A stretch of DNA of 64,000 nucleotides from Betaproteobacteria bacterium (GTDB taxonomy: Bacteria > Pseudomonadota > Gammaproteobacteria > Burkholderiales > SG8-41), in the NCBI GenBank assembly GCA_023266235.1, contig JAHFRL010000010.1, positions 5,555 to 69,554 on the forward strand. The letters run 5' to 3'. The position numbers and the translations under genes were made by a program. Under the pieces are notes generated by a model. It saw only the letters and a program-made list of their open reading frames with translations, was not told the origin of the DNA and ran no database searches. The stretch's first letter is position 1. Each line of letters opens with the position of its first letter. Positions 3,998 through 57,294 of this stretch are shown here, piece after piece.

Positions 3998-5248
3998 ATG
4001 AATCCATTTGTGCCAGCCAAACGCATCAGCTCGTTTCATCCGCCACAGCGCACGCTGATGGGTCCCGGCCCGACCGAGATCCACCCGCGCGTGCTGACCA
4101 CCATGAGCCAGCCCGCGATCGGCTACCTCGACCCGATTTTCGTCGACATGATGGAGGAGCTGAAGACGCTGCTGCGCTACGTTTACCAGACCAGGAACCC
4201 GCTCACGTTCCCGGTCTCGGGCCCGGGCTCGGTCGGCATGGAGTTCTGCTTCGTCAACCTGGTGCGGCCCGGCGACAAGGTGATCGTGTGCCGCAACGGC
4301 GTGTTCGGCGGCCGCATGATCGAGAACGTCGAGCGCTGCGGCGGCGCCGCGATTATCGTCGAGGACGAGTGGGGCTCGCCGGTCGATCCCCAGAAGGTCG
4401 AGGACGCGTTCCGCAGGAATCCCGGCGTGCGCATTCTGGCGTTCGTGCACGCCGAGACCTCGACCGGCTGCCAGTCGGACGCCAAGGCGCTCGTCGAGAT
4501 CGCGCACAGGCACAACGCGCTCACCATCGTCGATGCGGTGACTTCGCTCGGCGGCACCCCGGTGCTGGTCGACGAGTGGGGCATCGACGCCGTTTACTCG
4601 GCGAGCCAGAAATGCCTGTCGTGCACGCCGGGGCTGTCGCCGGTATCGTTCTCGGAGCGCATCGTCGCCGACGTCAAGTCGCGCAAGGACAAGATCCACA
4701 GCTGGTTCATGGACATGAACCTGCTGCTCGGCTACTGGGGTTCGACCACGCGCACCTACCATCACACCGCGCCCACCAATGCGCTGTTCGCGCTGCACGA
4801 GGCGTTGCTGCTGATCCGCGAGGAAGGGCTCGAGAACTGCTGGGCGCGCCATCACCGTCATCACCTCGCGCTCAAGGCGGGGCTCGAGGCGATGGGCCTC
4901 AAGTTCCTGGTCAAGGAGCAGTACCAGATACCGCAGATGAACGCCGTGCGCTGCCCCGAGGGCGTGGACGAGGCCGCGGTGAGAAAGACGCTGCTCAACG
5001 AGTTCGGCCTCGAGATCGGCGCGGGTCTCGGGCCGCTGGCGGGCAAGATCTGGCGCTTCGGTCTCATGGGTTACTCGTGCCGGCCCGACAACGTGATGCT
5101 GTGCCTGTCGGCGCTGGGCTCGGTGCTCGAGGACATGGGCTACAAGGTTCACGTCGGCGACGCGGAAGCGGCCGCGCATGGCGCTTATGCAGCGATGCAC
5201 GCCAAGGCCGCGCAGGCGAAGAAGAGGGGCGTGGCGAAAGCCGCATGA
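3998..5248 (+). CDS. Class V aminotransferase (serine-pyruvate / alanine-glyoxylate aminotransferase family)
   Basis: Contains LMGPGPTEIHPRVL, YSASQKCLS (PLP lysine) and family-typical length. AAAGGAAAC lies 5 nt upstream of ATG 3998. The track ORF (3731-5248) is the same frame with an N-terminal extension. Confidence 0.85.
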   Translation: MNPFVPAKRISSFHPPQRTLMGPGPTEIHPRVLTTMSQPAIGYLDPIFVDMMEELKTLLRYVYQTRNPLTFPVSGPGSVGMEFCFVNLVRPGDKVIVCRNGVFGGRMIENVERCGGAAIIVEDEWGSPVDPQKVEDAFRRNPGVRILAFVHAETSTGCQSDAKALVEIAHRHNALTIVDAVTSLGGTPVLVDEWGIDAVYSASQKCLSCTPGLSPVSFSERIVADVKSRKDKIHSWFMDMNLLLGYWGSTTRTYHHTAPTNALFALHEALLLIREEGLENCWARHHRHHLALKAGLEAMGLKFLVKEQYQIPQMNAVRCPEGVDEAAVRKTLLNEFGLEIGAGLGPLAGKIWRFGLMGYSCRPDNVMLCLSALGSVLEDMGYKVHVGDAEAAAHGAYAAMHAKAAQAKKRGVAKAA

Positions 5249-5315
5249 CCACAGTATTGCCGTGACACCTGGCGCAGCGGGCGGCGGCGGCTGCGGCAAG
5301 CTATAATCTCCTGCT

Positions 5316-6206
5316 GTGGCCGCCGAACTCCTCAATTTCGCCATCCTGTTTGCCGACGTCAGCGGCAGCACCAGCTTGTATGAAAAGCTTGGCGATCAAC
5401 GCGCGCTCGCCGCGATCGAAGCGGTGCTGGCCGAACTGCGCAAGTCGATCGCGATCCAGCGCGGCCGCGTCATCAAGACCATCGGCGACGAGGTGATGGC
5501 GGTACTGCCGTCCGCCGATGCCGCCATGCAGGCGGCGTGCGACATGCAGAACCGCGTCGCGGCCATTCCTCCGGCAGACAACGTGCGGCTCGCGATCAGA
5601 GTCGGGTTTCATTTCGGGCCGGCAATCGAGGAGGGCGGCGATTTCTTCGGCGACGCGGTAAATACCGCGGCGCGCATGGCCGGGCTCGCCAAAGGCGGGC
5701 AGATCATCACCAGCGGCGCGACGGTCGACGCGCTGTCGCAGCTGCTGCGCGAGGCCACGCGTGACCTCGACGCGATGACGGTCAAGGGCAAGCAGGACGA
5801 GATCCGGATCTTCGAGGTGGTCTGGTGTGATAGCGAAGACCTGACCACGCTTGCTGGGCGCGAGACGCCGGTCAGCACGCATGCGCCGACGCTGACCCTG
5901 ATCCATCGCGAACACACTCTCACGCTCGGCGCAGCCCGGCCATCGGCGTCGCTCGGGCGCGAAGCCACGAACGACCTGGTGGTCGCGGACAAGATGGCGT
6001 CCCGCGTGCATTGCAAGATCGAGTACCGCCGCGGCAAGTTCCTCCTGGTCGACCAAAGCTCGAACGGCACCTACATGACGGTCGAGGGTGACGCCGAGAT
6101 CATGCTGAAGCGCGAGCAGTTGCTGTTGCGCGGGCGTGGCGTGCTCAGTCTCGGCCATTCGTCCGCTGCACCGGGTGCCGAGATCGTGACTTTCGCGTGC
6201 AATTAG
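5316..6206 (+). CDS. Class III adenylate/guanylate cyclase with C-terminal FHA domain
   Basis: Cyclase motifs FADVSGSTSLYE, IKTIGDEVMAV and GDAVNTAARMAG. The FHA-like C-terminus reads LGREATNDLVVADKMASRVHCKIEYRRGKFLLVDQSSNGTYM. GTG start. Confidence 0.85.
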   Translation: MAAELLNFAILFADVSGSTSLYEKLGDQRALAAIEAVLAELRKSIAIQRGRVIKTIGDEVMAVLPSADAAMQAACDMQNRVAAIPPADNVRLAIRVGFHFGPAIEEGGDFFGDAVNTAARMAGLAKGGQIITSGATVDALSQLLREATRDLDAMTVKGKQDEIRIFEVVWCDSEDLTTLAGRETPVSTHAPTLTLIHREHTLTLGAARPSASLGREATNDLVVADKMASRVHCKIEYRRGKFLLVDQSSNGTYMTVEGDAEIMLKREQLLLRGRGVLSLGHSSAAPGAEIVTFACN

Positions 6207-11354: not shown

Positions 11355-12782
11355 TCAATACCGGTAGTGCTCGGACTTGTACGGGCCGTCAACCGGCACG
11401 TTCAGGTAATCGCACTGCCTTTCGTTCAGCACTGTCAGTTCGACGCCAAGCTTCTTGAGGTGCAGGCGCGCGACTTTTTCGTCGAGCTGCTTGGGCAGCA
11501 CGTAGACCTTGTTCCCGTATTGGCCGCTCTTGGTGTAAAGCTCGATCTGCGCGAGGGTCTGGTTGGTGAACGAGCTCGACATCACGAACGACGGGTGCCC
11601 GGTGCCGCAGCCGAGGTTCACCAGGCGACCTTCGGCGAGCACGATCAGCCGCTTGCCGTCCGGAAACACCACGTGGTCGACCTGCGGCTTGATGTTTTCC
11701 CACCGGTAAGCTTTAAGCGCGGCGATCTCGATTTCGGAGTCGAAGTGGCCGATGTTGCACACGATCGCATTGTGCTTCATGCGCTTCATGTGCGCGTGGT
11801 TGATCACGCCCACGTTGCCGGTCGCGGTCACGAAAATGTCGGCCTTGTCGGCCGCGTAATCCATGGTCACCACGCGGAAACCTTCCATCGCCGCCTGCAA
11901 TGCGCAGATCGGGTCGATCTCGGTCACCCACACCTGCGCGGAAAGCGCGCGCAGGGCCTCGGCGCTGCCCTTGCCGACATCGCCATAGCCGCACACGAGC
12001 GCTACCTTGCCCGCCACCATCACGTCAGTCGCGCGCTTGATCGCATCGACCAGCGACTCGCGGCAACCGTAGAGGTTGTCGAACTTGGACTTGGTCACGG
12101 AATCATTGACATTGATCGCCGGGAACGGCAGGCGCCCCTCTTTTTCCATCTGGTACAAGCGGTGCACGCCGGTCGTGGTTTCCTCGGTGACGCCCTTGAT
12201 GTTGGCCTGGATTCTCGAGTAGAAGCCGGGTTTTTCCTTGAGTCGCTTCTTGATCGCGGCGAACAGCACGCGCTCTTCCTCGTTGCTGCCCGCGGGCGGG
12301 ACCGTGGCGTCTTTCTCATGCTTCGCGCCCAGCGTGACGAGCAGCGTGGCATCGCCGCCATCGTCGAGGATCATGTTGGGCGTGCCGCCCTCATTTTCGT
12401 TACCGGGCCATTCGAGGATCTTGTGGGTGTATTCCCAGTAATCCACGAGCGTTTCGCCCTTGTAGGCGAATACCGGGATGCCGCGCGCCGCGATCGCCGC
12501 CGCGGCGTGATCCTGCGTCGAGAATATATTGCACGACGCCCAGCGAATGTCGGCGCCGAGTTCGGCCAGCGTCTCGATCAGCACTGCGGTCTGGATCGTC
12601 ATGTGCAGTGATCCGGCGATGCGCGCTCCTTGCAGCGGCTGCCTGCCTTTGAATTCCTCGCGCAGCGCCATCAGGCCGGGCATTTCGGTCTCGGCAATGG
12701 CGATTTCCTTGCGGCCGAAGTCGGCCTGCCTGATGTCCGCGACCTTGTAGTCGGCGGATTTTGCTTGAGTTGCGGCGTTCAT
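11355..12782 (-). CDS. ahcY: Adenosylhomocysteinase
   Basis: [37 protein letters not shown] (NAD site), C-terminal YKSEHYRY. Start moved to ATG 12782, preceded by AAAGGAGG. Confidence 0.95.
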
Positions 12783-12816
12783 CACGCCCTCCTTTCCCGA
12801 TAGCAGAAAAAAGTTC

Positions 12817-12894
12817 GTGAGCGCCGTTGCAAGTGTGGACACCCCGAGCCTGGCGGCCGCGCGGGAAGGCGGCCGTTGCAACGCTCCTCGGGGA
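12817..12894 (-). promoter_or_regulatory. SAH riboswitch (S-adenosylhomocysteine-responsive, RF01057 type) in the ahcY leader
   Basis: The minus strand reads CCCCGAGGAGCGUUGCAACGGCCGC..GCGGCCGCCAGGCUCGGGGUGUCCACACUUGCAACGGCGCUCAC. This carries the conserved GAGGAGCG, AGGCUCGG and CAACGGCGCUCAC blocks plus a variable hairpin, in the canonical position upstream of ahcY. Confidence 0.85.
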
Positions 12895-13076
12895 GGGGCG
12901 CTATTGTAACGCAACCGCCAATAGTTGTGGCAAACGGCTATACCACGTCACATAAACTGTTGGCTCAGGTGCCCTGTTGCTGCCCCGGCGTCCCCGAAAA
13001 TCTGCGATGATTCAATCTCGGAGGGGATTTGATGCTAGGTCACGCGCGGCAAATACATTGGCAACCAGGCTGGAAA

Positions 13077-13622
13077 CTACTTTTGTCCCAACCCTCGAAG
13101 TATCCAACGAAAAAAATTGCGAAGGCCGGTAAGAAGCTTGCGCCGCGGTAGCGGAGTTCCTGGCTTAATGCACCAGCCAGCTTCTGTCGCAAGCTTTGCG
13201 AGAGATTCTTTAAACCGCTTGAACGCACTAGCGCCTGTAAGCGGGGGTTGAGTAATTATTAGTGCGTGAGCCAAGTTCGCCTTGATGGCAAGAGAAATGT
13301 CGCCATTGACAGGATCTGGCATAACGTCAACCACATGTGACGAGGGGGCGGCAGAGTTATTCTGTTGGACAATTGGTCCAACAGCGCGAATCTTGGCTGC
13401 GTTCAGCTCGACAATTCCATCCGTCGTGGTAATCCGCGAGCGATGCGGATCAAAATTCTGCAGTTTCGCTCGATCCACTGACGGCTGCCTGCTGCGATCA
13501 TTGAATGCGGTACTTGAAAATCTAAACTGCCCTCCCTCGGTCGAATACAACGGGGAAGCTAAGTTGGGGATACGACGATAGAGTTGCTCATCGTCCTGCA
13601 CTCGATCCTGCCCATCGGTCAT
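13077..13622 (-). CDS. Hypothetical protein (181 aa), last gene of the low-GC operon
   Basis: ATGA overlap with the upstream gene. No family recognised. Notable segments are DEQLYRRIP, FRFSSTAFNDRSRQPSVDRAKL and NLAHALII. Confidence 0.6.
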   Translation of the reverse strand: MTDGQDRVQDDEQLYRRIPNLASPLYSTEGGQFRFSSTAFNDRSRQPSVDRAKLQNFDPHRSRITTTDGIVELNAAKIRAVGPIVQQNNSAAPSSHVVDVMPDPVNGDISLAIKANLAHALIITQPPLTGASAFKRFKESLAKLATEAGWCIKPGTPLPRRKLLTGLRNFFRWILRGLGQK

Positions 13623-14116
13623 GCAAAAAGCCAGCCCCAGAGCGGCGTTATCCCATTACTTGGGATTACCCCGTCTTCCATTTCGCTCACGATATGAGGC
13701 CCCCAACTCTTGAGGTAGGTCAGCTCGTGCGGTCCAGCATATATGGTGAGCTTGCGGTTCCCATGCCACCATTCGAAGACAATCTCACCGTCCTCGCTTG
13801 AACTAATGTGAGGAGCTTGCCAACCTCCGGCCGCCTCGCATTGCAGGTAAGCTTCTTCAAGAAACTGTCGCGCGTTCTCGATTGCCAACGTGTCTGGGTG
13901 AACGCTACCGTAGCCATCCCAGTCATCCGGCAACAACGCAATCTGATCGAGTTGGTCGTGCAACGGGAATAACATTGGTTCCTTGGCGGCCCTACTCAAG
14001 TCACCAGATATAGCGGCGCTCGGAGGGGCAAAATGACGTACTTTGACAGTAGGTCGTGATCCGAACGACGGCCGTAAATAATCGCGCCAGCCAATTTCAG
14101 CAGCTATGGTACTCAT
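13619..14116 (-). CDS. Hypothetical protein (165 aa), third gene of the low-GC operon
   Basis: ATGA overlaps on both sides. Contains LLPDDWDGYGSVHPDTLAIENARQFLEEA. No family recognised. Confidence 0.6.
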   Translation of the reverse strand: MSTIAAEIGWRDYLRPSFGSRPTVKVRHFAPPSAAISGDLSRAAKEPMLFPLHDQLDQIALLPDDWDGYGSVHPDTLAIENARQFLEEAYLQCEAAGGWQAPHISSSEDGEIVFEWWHGNRKLTIYAGPHELTYLKSWGPHIVSEMEDGVIPSNGITPLWGWLFA

Positions 14117-14868
14117 TGATCAATCAGCTCCCTTGTACGGTCGGTGATGCAAGCTTCGAAGATCTCATTCTTGCGATCCCGCAGTTTATCAAGAAATGCC
14201 CAAACTTCCGAATCTTGCCAAGTTTCAATACCGAGACGAAAAATGTCAATGTCAAAAATTATCGATATATGCCCAGGCTTCGCCGGTTCAACCAAGGCTT
14301 GGTTGAGTACAGCGACGCATTCAATATCCGGTTGTGGCATCTGAAGGTTCATTGCCATCCCCATTACATCTTGCTGTGGGAGTTGTTCCGGAATCTTTGG
14401 GTAAAGCGTGAAATAATCGTAAGGCTCTATCTTGGCCCCAGGTATATTTACGCGATTGATATAGCGTAGCGCGCATCGCGCTAATTTTACATCGCGGACA
14501 GAGGATCGATATCTCTCCCATAACGGTTGTGCTTCAGCTCGGAAAGTGGCCCAATCTGTATATGGGGCCATGTGGCTGTATGCAAAGCCGTCCCGCCTAA
14601 CTTGAAGGATGCGTGAATCGTCAACCTTAGATAGTCGATAACCGATGACACCTTGCGAGGACGTAAAGACCGCGTCTTCAGCTTGGTTCTGTGCTGCCAC
14701 ACCCATTTGCAACAGCCGCATGGGCGCCTGCTTCGGGAACTCCGGTTTGAAAGATTCTGCTAGCTTTTCAACCGCTGTCTTCCCAAATGATTCAGGCGGC
14801 TGTATTCGAATCTCGATTACCGCTTCGGTAATCGGCGCGCTCTTGTATCGCTTCGGGTTCGACGTCAC
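14113..14868 (-). CDS. TIGR04255-like family protein (function unknown)
   Basis: The N-terminus RYKSAPITEAVIEIRIQPPESF...FKPEFPKQ and the ~250-aa length match my recollection of TIGR04255 family proteins. The assignment needs an HMM check. Confidence 0.6.
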   Translation of the reverse strand: MTSNPKRYKSAPITEAVIEIRIQPPESFGKTAVEKLAESFKPEFPKQAPMRLLQMGVAAQNQAEDAVFTSSQGVIGYRLSKVDDSRILQVRRDGFAYSHMAPYTDWATFRAEAQPLWERYRSSVRDVKLARCALRYINRVNIPGAKIEPYDYFTLYPKIPEQLPQQDVMGMAMNLQMPQPDIECVAVLNQALVEPAKPGHISIIFDIDIFRLGIETWQDSEVWAFLDKLRDRKNEIFEACITDRTRELIDQ

Positions 14869-14874
14869 GACCTG

Positions 14875-15414
14875 TTAATTTGCAAATTGACGCCGGTAGG
14901 CAAGAACCTGCTTGGCGTTGCGCAGCGTCTTGGCAATCGCTTTGACGTCGATAAGATCGTTTTCGTCGGCGGACTTCCACGCCGCGTCGTGGCTCTTATC
15001 CGTCAGGCGCTTGAAACTGAGCTTGCCGTTTTCCTTGATCGATGAGTCGAGGCATTCGCGCTGAGATGCGCTGAGCAGATCGAGGTTTGCCGGGCGTAAC
15101 GGTCGCACGCGGCGACCTTCTTCGACGCTCAAAGACTGCGCAACCAACTCGTAGAACTGCGAAGGAATGAGCGGTTCGAGGCGACCGGCGCCGGCCTTCA
15201 TGAGATTGTAAATCGCGCTTGGCACGGGCCCGTGCCGCATGGCCACGTAGTTGTCCCCCGACAACAGGCTGCCATATCGCGATAGATGTTCGCGGTCGGC
15301 GAAGTATAGCACTTTGGATACGGAGTGCAGCGTCGGGTAGCGCAATCGGCTGGCGACGTACAGCACCAGTTCCAACGCGCGTTCAGGGTCGAAGCGGATC
15401 GGGGTGACTGTCAT
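14875..15414 (-). CDS. Panacea (DUF4065, SocA/PanA-type) domain protein, putative antitoxin
   Basis: SKVLYFADREHLSRYGSLLSGDNYVAMRHGPVPSAIYNLMK and SASQRECLDSSIKENGKLSFKRLTDKSHDAAWKSA match the DUF4065 pattern. ATG 15414 is preferred over the track's TTG at 15429. Confidence 0.7.
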   Translation of the reverse strand: MTVTPIRFDPERALELVLYVASRLRYPTLHSVSKVLYFADREHLSRYGSLLSGDNYVAMRHGPVPSAIYNLMKAGAGRLEPLIPSQFYELVAQSLSVEEGRRVRPLRPANLDLLSASQRECLDSSIKENGKLSFKRLTDKSHDAAWKSADENDLIDVKAIAKTLRNAKQVLAYRRQFAN

Positions 15415-15434
15415 GGAGAAGCACCGCAAGACGA

Positions 15435-15463
15435 ATTGTAGAAGCTATTTGCGGATCACTCAA
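15435..15463 (-). promoter_or_regulatory. Sigma70-like promoter for the low-GC operon
   Basis: The minus strand reads TTGAGT-N17-TACAAT. The -10 element ends about 20 nt upstream of ATG 15414. Confidence 0.45.
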
Positions 15464-15488
15464 GAACCGGTGTTTGACTGTCGGTTTT

Positions 15489-16655
15489 TCACTTAATTCC
15501 CGCGTCGGCCTTCAGCGCCGCCGCCTTGTCGGTCGCTTCCCAGGTGAACTCCGGTTCGTCGCGCCCGAAGTGGCCGTAGGCCGCGGTCTTGAGGTAAATC
15601 GGACGCAGCAGGTCGAGCGCATTGATGATGCCTTTGGGCCGCAGATCGAAATGCTTTTCGACCAGCTTGGCGATTTTTTCGTCCGCGATCCTGCCGGTGC
15701 CGAAGGTGTCGACCAACACGCTCACCGGGCGCGCGACGCCGATCGCATAAGCGACCTGCACTTCGCATTTTTTCGCGAGGCCCGCCGCCACGATGTTCTT
15801 CGCGACATGGCGCGCCGCATAGGCGCCCGAGCGGTCGACTTTCGACGGGTCTTTGCCCGAGAACGCGCCGCCGCCGTGGCGCGAATAGCCGCCGTAGGTG
15901 TCGACGATGATCTTGCGCCCGGTGAGCCCCGTGTCGCCCATCGGACCACCGATCACGAAGCGCCCGGTCGGGTTGATCAGGTACTTGGTGTCGGCCCTGA
16001 GCATATTTTTCGGGAACACCGGCTTCACGATTTGCTCTATAACCGCTTCCTCGATCTGCTCGTGAGTGATGTCCGGATCGTGCTGGGTCGAGATCACGAC
16101 GGTCTCGACCTGGGTCGGCTCGCCGTCGACGTAGCGCACGGTGAGCTGCGACTTGGCGTCGGGCCTGAGCCACGGCAGGCGGCCGTCCTTGCGCAGCTCG
16201 GCATGGCGCTCCATCAGGCGGTGCGCGTAGTAAATCGGCACCGGCATCAACTGTGGCGTCTCATCGCACGCAAAGCCGTACATCAGGCCCTGGTCGCCGG
16301 CGCCCTGTTCGAGGTCGAGGCCTGTGCCTTCGTCGACGCCCAGCGCAATATCGGGCGACTGCCGGTCATACGTAGTGAGCACCGCGCAAGTGCGGTAATC
16401 GAAGCCGATTTCCGAGCTGTCATAGCCGATGCGCTTGATCACGCCGCGCGCGATTTCGCCGTAATTGACGTTGGCTTTGGTGGTGATCTGGCCGGCCATT
16501 ACCACCAGCCCGGTTGCGACCAGCGTCTCGGCGGCTACACGGCCGTGTTTGTCCTGGGCTAAGATAGCGTCAAGGACCGCGTCCGAAATCTGGTCTGCGA
16601 TCTTGTCGGGGTGTCCTTCGGAAACGGATTCGGAAGTGAACAGAAAATCGCTCAT
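15489..16655 (-). CDS. metK: S-adenosylmethionine synthetase
   Basis: [52 protein letters not shown]. Start moved to ATG 16655. Confidence 0.95.
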
Positions 16656-54426: not shown

Positions 54427-54452
54427 GGTGAAATGTGATGGTTGCGTGGGTG

Positions 54453-55865
54453 TTAAACGACGCTTTCTCCGTGCAGCGAGACGTCCAACCCCTCGCGTTC
54501 CTCTTCTTCAGTCACGCGCAAGCCGATCGTGATATCGATTGCCTTGAGAATGATCAGTGACACGACACCACTGTAAATCAGCGTTGTCAGCACCGCATAC
54601 ACTTGCACCATAAAGTTGGCATCTACGCCGCTGATATCCTTGACGTTGAGTACGCCGACCAGCAACGCGCCGACGATACCGCCGATGCAGTGCACCCCGA
54701 ACGCGTCCAGGGAATCGTCGTAGCCGAACATCTTTTTCACCGAGGTCGCGGCCCAGAAGCACAACACACCCGCGGCGATACCGATGATCAGCGCACCGGT
54801 CGGGTCAACGAAACCGGATGCCGGCGTGATCGCCACCAGACCCGCCACAGCGCCGGACGCAATGCCCAGCACGGAGGGTTTCCCTTTGGCGAGCCATTCG
54901 GCAAACATCCAGGTCAGAGCGGCAGCTGCAGTCGCGAACTGGGTGACCGTCATGGCCAGGCCCGCACGACCGTCGGCGGCGACTGCCGATCCCGCATTGA
55001 AGCCGAACCAGCCCACCCACAGCAATGAGGCACCGATGATCGTCAGCGTCAGGTTATGCGGCGCCATTGCTTCTTTGCCATAGCCGACCCGTTTGCCCAG
55101 CACCAGCGCGCACATCAATCCGGCAATACCCGCGTTGATATGAACCACGGTGCCGCCCGCGAAATCGAGCACACCCATGGCCGCAAACTTGCCGGCCGGC
55201 TCCCACATGATGTGGGCGATCGGCGAGTAGACCAGCACCGACCACAGCCCCATGAACCACAGCATTGCCGAGAACTTCATGCGATCCGCAAACGCGCCCG
55301 CAATCAGCGCCGGAGTGATGATCGCGAAGGTCATCTGGAACATCATATAGACCGATTCAGGTATGGTCGTGGCTGCATGGTGCACCGACACTTTGCCGGC
55401 TTCCTTCATGAAGGACATGCCGTTCAGGAAAAGCCGGTCCATGCTGCCGATGTACTCGGATCCCGGCATGAAGGCGAGACTGTAGCCGATGACGCACCAC
55501 ACAACGGTTACCACGCAGGTGATCGCGAAGCTTTGCATCACCGTGGCCAGCACGTTTTTCTTGCGTACCATACCGCCGTAGAACAACGCAAGCCCGGGGA
55601 TCGTCATCAACAGGACCAGAGCCGTCGATGCCAGCATCCAGGCGGTATCCCCGGAATTGATCTTCGCGACGTCGATCAACTCGGGCTTGGTCGGTGCGGC
55701 CGGCGCCGGTGCGGCGGCAGGCGCCGCGTCTTTCTTCTCGTCGGCCTTCGCCGCAGGCGCTTCGGTGGCGGGTTTATCCGCCGGCTTGTCCTGCGCGATG
55801 ACGGGCGCCGCAACTCCGAAGCTGAATGCGCTGATCAGCGCGAGTATGGTTAATATGCGTTTCAT
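54453..55865 (-). CDS. amtB: Ammonium transporter AmtB
   Basis: A signal peptide, then GDTAWMLASTALVLLMTIPGLALFYGG, DFAGGTVVHINAG and DDSLDAFGVHCIGGIVG. Confidence 0.9.
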   Translation of the reverse strand: MKRILTILALISAFSFGVAAPVIAQDKPADKPATEAPAAKADEKKDAAPAAAPAPAAPTKPELIDVAKINSGDTAWMLASTALVLLMTIPGLALFYGGMVRKKNVLATVMQSFAITCVVTVVWCVIGYSLAFMPGSEYIGSMDRLFLNGMSFMKEAGKVSVHHAATTIPESVYMMFQMTFAIITPALIAGAFADRMKFSAMLWFMGLWSVLVYSPIAHIMWEPAGKFAAMGVLDFAGGTVVHINAGIAGLMCALVLGKRVGYGKEAMAPHNLTLTIIGASLLWVGWFGFNAGSAVAADGRAGLAMTVTQFATAAAALTWMFAEWLAKGKPSVLGIASGAVAGLVAITPASGFVDPTGALIIGIAAGVLCFWAATSVKKMFGYDDSLDAFGVHCIGGIVGALLVGVLNVKDISGVDANFMVQVYAVLTTLIYSGVVSLIILKAIDITIGLRVTEEEEREGLDVSLHGESVV

Positions 55866-55876
55866 GTAATTCTCCC

Positions 55877-56266
<390 letters not shown>

Positions 56267-57244
56267 TTAAAAGGTTTTCTGGATAAAGACCGTGCCGGTG
56301 CTCTTGGCGATGTCGTGCGGGTACGGCCCGAATGAACCAGCCACCGGATCGTTGACGCCGCCATAGCCGAGCTTGTTGTAGCTGAACCCTTTCGACCAGA
56401 ACGCGCCGACCGTGAAGTCTTTCGGCAACGCGTAGCTCAATCCGATTTTTGCGTCCTTATACGAAAAGAGCGCATCGTTGCTCTGCACCACGCCACCGAC
56501 AGAGGCATTCTGCGGACTGGTGCCCGTGTACTTTTGGTAGCCAACGTGCAGGTTTAGGGTGAGTCCGTCCAACCCTTTGCTCATTTCCCCCAACGGAACG
56601 TTGGCGCTAAGATCAAGATACCCGGTCCCCCTGCTGTTGAGGACACCGAAGATGTGATCAAGCACACTGTAGGAGTACTTGAGGGTGATCCATTTCCAGC
56701 TTCCGGCCGCATAGATTTCCCAAGTATCGAGCTTGGCTAAGCTGGGCAAATTCGCCGCCGCCGCCGCCGCATTGATGAACTGATTAGTGTTTCCCGGATA
56801 CCAGTAATACAGCGTGCCGAGGTCGACGGTGAAATCGTTGGGTAGGTTCCATTTATAACCGCCGTAGAAATCCCACTCCAGGCTGCCTCCCGATTCATAG
56901 CTTCCCTGGATTACATTCGGAAGTGCAGGGCCGAATGGTTGGTGCAGCGAGAAATTTTCTTTGGGCCAACTAATATTGGAAGCCCAGGTGCCGAGATAGA
57001 AGCCCGATTCGTGCGCCCAGTCGAAGCCCCCTTGCGCTGCCGGCTTGGCGTCGGTCTGCGATAATCCACGGAATATGTACTGGCTGAAGAATCCGAAATT
57101 ACCGGTCAAGGTGTAGGGGGGTTTCGGTTCTGCCGGCTTGGCATCCGCTGATTTGGCGTCCGCAGGTGCGGCTTGGGCGAATACAACCCCCGGCAGGCCG
57201 ATCACTGCAGCGACCGCTCCCGCCATGAATGTTTTTTTGAGCAT
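56267..57244 (-). CDS. Outer-membrane porin, TorF / TIGR02001 (Gcw_chp) family
   Basis: A signal peptide, then TGNFGFFSQYIFRGLSQTD..PAAQGGFDWAHESGFYLGTWASNI and a terminal ...IQKTF. Start moved to ATG 57244. Confidence 0.75.
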   Translation of the reverse strand: MLKKTFMAGAVAAVIGLPGVVFAQAAPADAKSADAKPAEPKPPYTLTGNFGFFSQYIFRGLSQTDAKPAAQGGFDWAHESGFYLGTWASNISWPKENFSLHQPFGPALPNVIQGSYESGGSLEWDFYGGYKWNLPNDFTVDLGTLYYWYPGNTNQFINAAAAAANLPSLAKLDTWEIYAAGSWKWITLKYSYSVLDHIFGVLNSRGTGYLDLSANVPLGEMSKGLDGLTLNLHVGYQKYTGTSPQNASVGGVVQSNDALFSYKDAKIGLSYALPKDFTVGAFWSKGFSYNKLGYGGVNDPVAGSFGPYPHDIAKSTGTVFIQKTF

Positions 57245-57294
57245 GATTCTCCCTTTCATGTGTTAACAAATGTCTAGCACTACGCGGTGGTATC

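Follow-up and report, generated by a model that had tools for sequence, protein, structure and literature searches.

A TIGR04255-led three-gene cassette, a candidate tripartite toxin–antitoxin module, behind a probable orphan Panacea gene in a betaproteobacterial genome

The 64,000-nucleotide stretch of DNA from Betaproteobacteria bacterium considered here (assembly GCA_023266235.1, contig JAHFRL010000010.1, positions 5,555 to 69,554; hereafter the window) carries an islet of four open reading frames (ORFs), g1 to g4, all on the minus strand between metK and the S-adenosylhomocysteine (SAH) riboswitch of ahcY. The conserved unit within this islet consists of three genes, g2–g3–g4, and not of four. 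We lean towards reading the islet as two parts of different origin that have been joined: a translationally coupled tripartite cassette of the toxin–antitoxin or abortive-infection type, made up of g2, g3, and g4, and an orphan PanA-type gene, g1, that precedes it. A preliminary description of this DNA had placed the Panacea protein g1 at the head of a four-gene unit with the TIGR04255 protein g2 as its partner. Comparison with other loci supports neither idea, while the proposal of a toxin–antitoxin or abortive-infection type of system is retained as a candidate function.

The constant first gene of the cassette is g2 (14113-14868, minus strand, GTG start), which encodes a TIGR04255 protein of 251 amino acids (aa). 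It is followed by g3 (13619-14116, minus strand), encoding a middle protein of 165 aa, and g4 (13077-13622, minus strand), encoding a third protein of 181 aa. The Panacea gene g1 (14875-15414, minus strand) encodes a Panacea/DUF4065 protein of the PanA type with 179 aa; it starts with ATG within an ORF that opens at a TTG at 15429. The tight packing first described is borne out to the nucleotide, with a gap of 6 nucleotides (nt) between g1 and g2 and ATGA overlaps between g2 and g3 (14113-14116) and between g3 and g4 (13619-13622).

About 50 loci carry the trio with its gene order unchanged; they are spread over many phyla and include plasmids and viral contigs. Of 30 independent loci fetched with g3 from genomes and metagenomes, g4 lies downstream of g3 in 25 of the 26 with room for it, and g2 lies upstream in 20 of the 23 with room. 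The ATGA overlap recurs between g2 and g3 in 26 of 37 loci and between g3 and g4 in 16 of 39. More trios were found among TIGR04255 loci, in Rugosibacter, Undibacterium, Gammaproteobacteria, Chthonomonadales, Rubrobacterales, Chloroflexia, and Dictyobacter vulcani, the last of which provides a cultured isolate with the same trio type (strain W12). Outside the window's own population, no Panacea gene stands upstream of any of the trio or TIGR04255 loci, and close relatives of g1 (phmmer, E <= 0.01) turn up here only in contigs encoding proteins identical to those of the window. The genes found upstream of other trios are mutually unrelated, and the 61 ORFs upstream of TIGR04255 loci form no cluster of more than two. 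Co-occurrence in other genomes had been proposed as a check on the four-gene idea; g2, g3, and g4 do travel together, while g1 joins them only in the window's population. The four-gene arrangement is best taken as a chance local event or as a recruitment of very recent date, rather than as a conserved system.

The closest relatives of the trio make the same point at short range. In the closest one (locus L155), the trio sits behind an alcohol dehydrogenase gene, and in three others (L152 to L154, with g2 86% identical) it adjoins a complete type I restriction–modification (R-M) system; there is no Panacea gene in either setting. At the DNA level, the window resembles L155 from the GTG of g2 onwards and not upstream of it. 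Identity to L155 falls along the cassette, from 90% for g2 to 75% for g3 and 47% for g4, and the ratio of nonsynonymous to synonymous substitution rates (dN/dS), measured against L152 and L155, rises in the same direction (0.08-0.12 for g2, 0.17-0.20 for g3, and 0.25 for g4). All three genes are maintained under purifying selection, with the fastest diversification or exchange towards the 3' end.

In three loci, g3 and g4 occur without g2, each time behind a different first gene that overlaps or abuts them, which fits g3–g4 as the core pair. Pairs lacking a TIGR04255 gene are seen at L009:5336-5773, L018:3607-5393, and L033:3985-4809, where the upstream genes have no Pfam match. At L018, g3 has an N-terminal extension of about 100 aa, and the 310-aa protein encoded upstream contains an 'INGSHR' motif.

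The Panacea gene has a different set of associations. As first recognized, g1 is a genuine member of its family, scoring 80.8 bits against Pfam PF13274 SocA_Panacea (cut-off 25.7) over model positions 3-113 of 113, and it is full length, without an N-terminal DNA-binding domain. Relatives with 32-75% identity are carried by 28 genome loci, and in 21 of the 28 the next gene belongs to one unannotated family of about 135-157 aa. In most of these 21 loci this partner of about 150 aa overlaps the g1 relative or begins no more than about 15 nt from the g1 relative's stop codon, and it is likely a toxin of the PanT type. None of g2, g3, or g4 occurs in the 28 loci, and none of the loci lies next to metK or ahcY. 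The usual partner is absent from the window in a tblastn search with ten partners (best E = 0.013, far outside the islet). It is the family of about 150 aa, and not the TIGR04255 protein, that normally pairs with relatives of g1; g1 itself is probably an orphan antitoxin outside the conserved cassette that is here probably co-transcribed with the trio. The partner family (in L124-L151, e.g., L124:5545-6009 and L127:5533-6006) has no Pfam match and carries the motif 'K.KFLVV..FVVNS..HPFIE..CQV..D..FL..DSWI.C'.

Base composition also separates the two parts. At 51.4% G+C, where the window averages 62.5% (z = -4.2), the trio is essentially the lowest-G+C stretch of its length in the 64 kb, in agreement with the low-GC islet originally noted between ahcY and metK; the flanks, put earlier at 65-70%, measure about 62-63%. 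G+C at third codon positions (GC3) is 0.82-0.84 for metF, ahcY, and metK, 0.73 for g1, and 0.50, 0.55, and 0.51 for g2, g3, and g4, respectively. Values so far apart for g1 and the trio mean that the two lack a common compositional history. The earlier view of a horizontally acquired islet without an integrase holds: there is a compositional break against the flanking core genes, the islet contains no integrase, and it has no flanking repeats beyond short matches at chance level.

The same four-gene arrangement is found in contigs from four samples, and since these are identical at the protein level they represent one population. One locus (L001) was considered as a truncated variant of the islet and rejected; its DNA encodes all four genes and only the gene calling differs. 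An exact-protein look-up found no contig with the same AhcY that lacks the islet and could represent an empty site, and the corresponding look-up with MetK returned no record.

To our knowledge, TIGR04255 is a curated family with no assigned function. The assignment of g2 to it, already made in the preliminary description, is secure and full length (137.1 bits against a cut-off of 30 in NCBIfam, residues 7-249 on model positions 1-251 of 252); the protein has no Pfam family. Neither TIGR04255 nor its synonyms IPR026349 and CHP04255 are mentioned in the open-access papers and preprints searched, and the same literature gave no match for DUF7689 or for a fold like that of TATA-binding protein (TBP) in a tripartite toxin–antitoxin system. 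TIGR04255 also goes unmentioned in the accessible part of the supplement text of Kurata et al. 2022 (PMC8832971).

The AlphaFold model of g2 has a predicted local distance difference test score (pLDDT) of 89.9 and a predicted template modeling score (pTM) of 0.85. It contains two beta-alpha-beta4-alpha repeats, so that g2 is predicted to be a tandem, duplicated TBP-like fold. The top Foldseek matches among PDB and viral structures are TATA-binding proteins, with probabilities up to 1.0 and TM-scores of only 0.25-0.55. Further matches include RepDE, McsB, the C-terminal domain of phosphoglucomutase, PYL receptors, and YwmB, several of which we take, from the SCOP classification, to have the TBP-like fold as well. 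In the model the resemblance is one of fold only, with no evidence of membership in the TBP family or in any of these others. About 20 residues of g2 are invariant, many of them charged, including E15, R131, R135, N138, D181, D206, D208, and K233; R131, R135, and the D206-x-D208 pair lie on strands of the second repeat. The charged strands led to the consideration of g2 as an enzyme of the CYTH or triphosphate-tunnel type, which was dropped, with no such structures among the Foldseek matches.

The third and fourth proteins of the islet were at first taken for orphans, but both belong to sizable families. Homologues of g3 form at least 60 clusters at 90% identity and share invariant W-D and E..EW motifs (LPxxWDGYGS and GEIVFEWW). 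Residues 52-125 of g3, the region from WDGYG to EW, match positions 258-326 of the 375-position PADLOC model PDC-M32A (E = 1e-5, partial), a stretch of the model to which a middle gene from a different cassette type also aligns. The g4 profile collects 726 clusters at 50% identity (E <= 1e-3), all of them single-domain proteins of about 140-220 aa. An alignment of 127 sequences shows invariant R16, F40, S48, and H119 and near-invariant E12, D42, D50, R51, R79, and N116, the invariant polar residues thus being Arg, Ser, and His. No match to g4 was found in Pfam, NCBIfam, PADLOC, or PHROGs, and Pfam searches with the 127 relatives gave no common family. PADLOC has nothing for g1 and g2 either, and PHROGs nothing for g2; with only the partial PDC-M32A match of g3 to set against this, the initial impression that the islet corresponds to no named system stands. 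Profile or sequence searches of the PDB with g3, with g4 (as a shallow and as a 127-sequence profile), and with third genes from three further types of cassette had a best E of 0.09. At its C-terminus the g4 protein of the window has a tail of about 25 aa that is basic and probably helical (13077-13160, 'RRKLLTGLRNFFRWILRGLGQK'). Its closest relatives have this tail too, and most family members of about 150 aa are without it.

The trio is one form of a wider arrangement. A pattern scan of 185,579 species genomes gave 493 TIGR04255 loci, and neighborhoods were taken from the best 80. Nearly all of them have two co-directional genes behind the TIGR04255 gene, and the second and third gene families co-vary one-to-one. 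Middle genes like g3 go with third genes like g4 (13 loci) or with a related 'LLFRRY..QSVNR..NYSHSE' family (12 loci), a pairing that holds in 25 of 28 cases. In a second type, a middle gene of 97 aa goes with a third gene of 175 aa from an 'ITQxCDL' family in 37 of 38 cases, in cyanobacteria, Planctomycetes, Nitrospira, and others. Two smaller cassette types, one ending in DUF7689, show pairings of 3/3 and 2/2. The window's g2–g3–g4 conforms to the TIGR04255-led three-gene pattern, a class defined in this analysis by two closely spaced genes of the same direction behind a TIGR04255 gene, with families that co-vary.

The families at equivalent positions are related to each other. By hhalign, third-gene families A and B are related at 96% and A and F at 80%, and the middle families A and B, and A and G, at 95-96%. 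Two divergent cassettes have recognizable domains at the third position: a Zeta_toxin (46.8 bits) on the Vibrio plasmid CP063527 and, at 27.4 bits, a HEPN domain on a plasmid from Thermus. The cassette of 97-aa and 175-aa 'ITQxCDL' proteins is the commonest among the 80 loci (L045-L118, e.g., L047:4702-5013 and 5006-5536), and its proteins have no Pfam, PADLOC, or PDB match.

The cassette family is found on mobile DNA, with 3 plasmids and 12 IMG/VR contigs represented, one of these contigs carrying the full trio. A full trio also stands at the very end of the record of the P2-like Ralstonia phage YO139_2 (ON170239.1 31538-36642; derived from Ralstonia solanacearum). Within 4 kb of 35 non-redundant trios, R-M genes include those of type I (3-6 members) and type III, along with N4/N6 methylases. 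Other neighbors are IS1595 and TniB transposition genes, an HNH nuclease, GIY-YIG-type proteins, and a P4-type primase, and ordinary metabolic genes are also found.

In the reading we favor, the division of labor within the trio would follow that of tripartite toxin–antitoxin modules. By this analogy, g4, the Arg/Ser/His protein, would be the toxic effector, and g3 its cognate neutralizer or adaptor. The TBP-like g2 would bind a ligand or nucleic acid and, as sensor or regulator, control the effector's release. Across the cassettes, second and third genes are exchanged as matched pairs around a constant TIGR04255 gene, and the module would be carried by plasmids, prophages, and defense or mobile islands. 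A phage-defense phenotype may be expected of such a module. For the window, the simplest history would start from an existing PanA gene, whose toxin gene was replaced by a trio that came without its upstream region. Placed 6 nt past the stop codon of g1, the trio presumably depends on the g1 promoter, and the four genes probably form one transcript in this strain.

Several observations weigh against this reading. In the window's trio, none of the three proteins is recognized by a model of a known toxin, antitoxin, or defense system. The Zeta_toxin and HEPN domains occur only in the divergent Vibrio and Thermus plasmid cassettes, whose TIGR04255 proteins are only 25-26% identical to g2, and Pfam finds neither domain in the g4 of the window. 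An AlphaFold model of g4 built on a 10-sequence alignment was discarded at a pLDDT of 42, and Foldseek gave nothing meaningful for it. The Ralstonia phage record is marked 'UNVERIFIED_ORG', and its trio adjoins ORFs that by eye resemble PAAR/DUF4123 type VI secretion genes, so that the end of the record may be host chromosome. R-M genes lie within 4 kb of only about 3-6 of the 35 trio loci, and with no background rate computed any enrichment in defense islands is no more than suggestive. Finally, the invariant charged residues mean that g2 could be an enzyme rather than a sensor.

Comparison with known systems places the islet near several of them and within none. Its first gene is a bona fide Panacea protein encoded a few nucleotides before the next gene, as in most PanA–PanT loci, and the Panacea domain is known for partner swapping; Kurata et al. 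2022 (PMC8832971) document dozens of toxins, unrelated to one another, as its partners. The gene behind g1 differs from a PanT gene in that it is not a conserved partner, the usual family of about 150 aa being missing here, and the downstream unit is a self-contained trio that elsewhere is always without Panacea. The match of g3 to PDC-M32A is what the islet shares with PDC-M32, a phage-defense candidate in PADLOC without demonstrated function, but only about 70 of the 375 model positions are matched, and PDC-M32B was not found in the PADLOC search of g1 to g4.

Two classical three-gene systems are closer in layout. Toxin–antitoxin–chaperone (TAC) systems consist of three co-transcribed genes in which a SecB-like chaperone, encoded last, is combined with different toxin–antitoxin pairs. 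The TIGR04255-led cassettes share with them the three co-transcribed genes and the single constant accessory protein around which toxin–antitoxin pairs would vary. They differ in that the constant protein has a predicted duplicated TBP-like fold and is encoded first instead of last, with partner families that are unrecognized; SecB is not among the best fold matches of g2 in Foldseek. In the omega–epsilon–zeta and PezAT systems the gene order is regulator, antitoxin, toxin. The cassettes would follow the same logic, and the one on the Vibrio plasmid does end in a Zeta-toxin kinase. However, g4 lacks both a P-loop and a Zeta match, g2 is no repressor of the ribbon-helix-helix type, and g3 is unrelated to epsilon or PezA in the searches run.

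Among the alternatives, one would have g2 as the active enzyme or effector, with the variable second and third genes as specificity, sensor, or immunity partners. It draws on the standing of g2 as the most conserved gene, on its invariant charged residues, above all R131, R135, and D206-x-D208 on the second-repeat strands, and on the faster evolution of its partners, as is often seen with sensors of phage proteins. We consider it unlikely, since Zeta toxin and HEPN, which are typical effectors, are found at the third position of divergent cassettes and g3–g4 exists without g2; TBP-like and Bet v 1-like folds, moreover, are mostly binding modules.

It is similarly improbable that the trio serves neither toxicity nor defense, being an anti-defense or regulatory module of phages and plasmids, or a mobile housekeeping accessory. 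Such a role would explain why the window's proteins match no toxin model, why cassettes are found on viral contigs, where counter-defense genes also reside, and why many trio loci have ordinary metabolic neighbors. Against it are the patchy spread across phyla and foreign composition, the exchange of matched gene pairs between cassettes, the Zeta and HEPN domains at the equivalent position, and the gradient of divergence towards the third gene. All of these features are typical of conflict systems, although anti-defense genes would be compatible with them as well.

Least probable of all is a genuine four-component system in which g1 would have become antitoxin or regulator by partner swapping and g2 or g4 would be the new toxin: the short same-strand spacing between g1 and g2, the sole promoter-like site in front of g1, the loss of the cassette's own upstream DNA so that g2 sits where g1 relatives have their usual partner, the intact and above-threshold g1, the documented promiscuity of Panacea, and the recurrence in four samples all speak for it, but the four contigs are protein-identical and thus one population, Panacea neighbors are missing from all other trio and TIGR04255 loci, a trio that is widespread without Panacea needs no external antitoxin, GC3 differs sharply between g1 and the trio, and the g1–g2 pair is confined to this population where the Panacea study requires a pair to be conserved in two species (PMC8832971).

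The limits and signals of the islet can be drawn closely. On the left it is bounded at 12895 by the SAH riboswitch, a host element outside the system that lies directly upstream of ahcY (12812-12895, minus strand; Rfam RF01057, 69.3 bits against a gathering score of 37). On the right it is bounded by the end of metK at 15489, so that the inserted DNA is confined to about 12896-15488 and is at most about 2.6 kb long. By Pfam labels the flanks are metK on one side and ahcY and metF on the other. A 519-aa ahcY ORF called mechanically from a TTG at 12914 overruns the riboswitch, and for that reason the real ahcY start is placed at 12782, giving 475 aa. The spacer between g4 and the riboswitch contains no terminator and no unusual structure (z = 0.26).

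The promoter originally assigned to the operon, TTGAGT-N17-TACAAT (15435..15463, minus strand, 9/12 matches), is present just past the metK stop codon and is the sole such site upstream of g1 to g4 on the minus strand. As evidence it does no better than shuffled sequence, with 3 promoter-like matches in the region against 2.1 +/- 1.9 in shuffles, and the region is not enriched for them. The site is plausibly placed for a promoter but is no evidence of one by itself.

Two further features lie elsewhere. The window has a second, milder low-GC stretch at about 54450-57260 (about 0.55) with ORFs on the minus strand that by eye resemble an ammonium transporter (54453-55865), P-II/GlnK (55877-56245), and a porin of 330 aa (56267-57259). 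On the window's own contig, a few kilobases past metF (L002:7468-10747), a gene for a 794-aa Ser/Thr protein kinase adjoins a gene encoding FHA and guanylate-cyclase domains; this pair is unrelated to the cassette.

If the favored reading is correct, TIGR04255 and the unannotated g3 and g4 families would gain a function and a handle for experiments. The reading would add a new constant component with a TBP-like fold to the few accessory proteins that control toxin–antitoxin pairs, and it would supply candidate new effector folds. A broader view, which we hold more tentatively, is that TIGR04255-led cassettes may together form a large and hitherto undescribed class of conflict systems, modular and with three components, in which a TBP-like switch or sensor is combined with interchangeable neutralizer–effector pairs and of which the window's cassette was captured behind a PanA gene. 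The effectors of such a class would include the Arg/Ser/His family, Zeta kinases, HEPN RNases, DUF7689, and the 'ITQxCDL' family. The window shows that a cassette can be grafted onto the transcription unit of another antitoxin, which bears on how Panacea proteins acquire their partners, and it would then represent Panacea partner swapping caught live, with a multi-gene partner.

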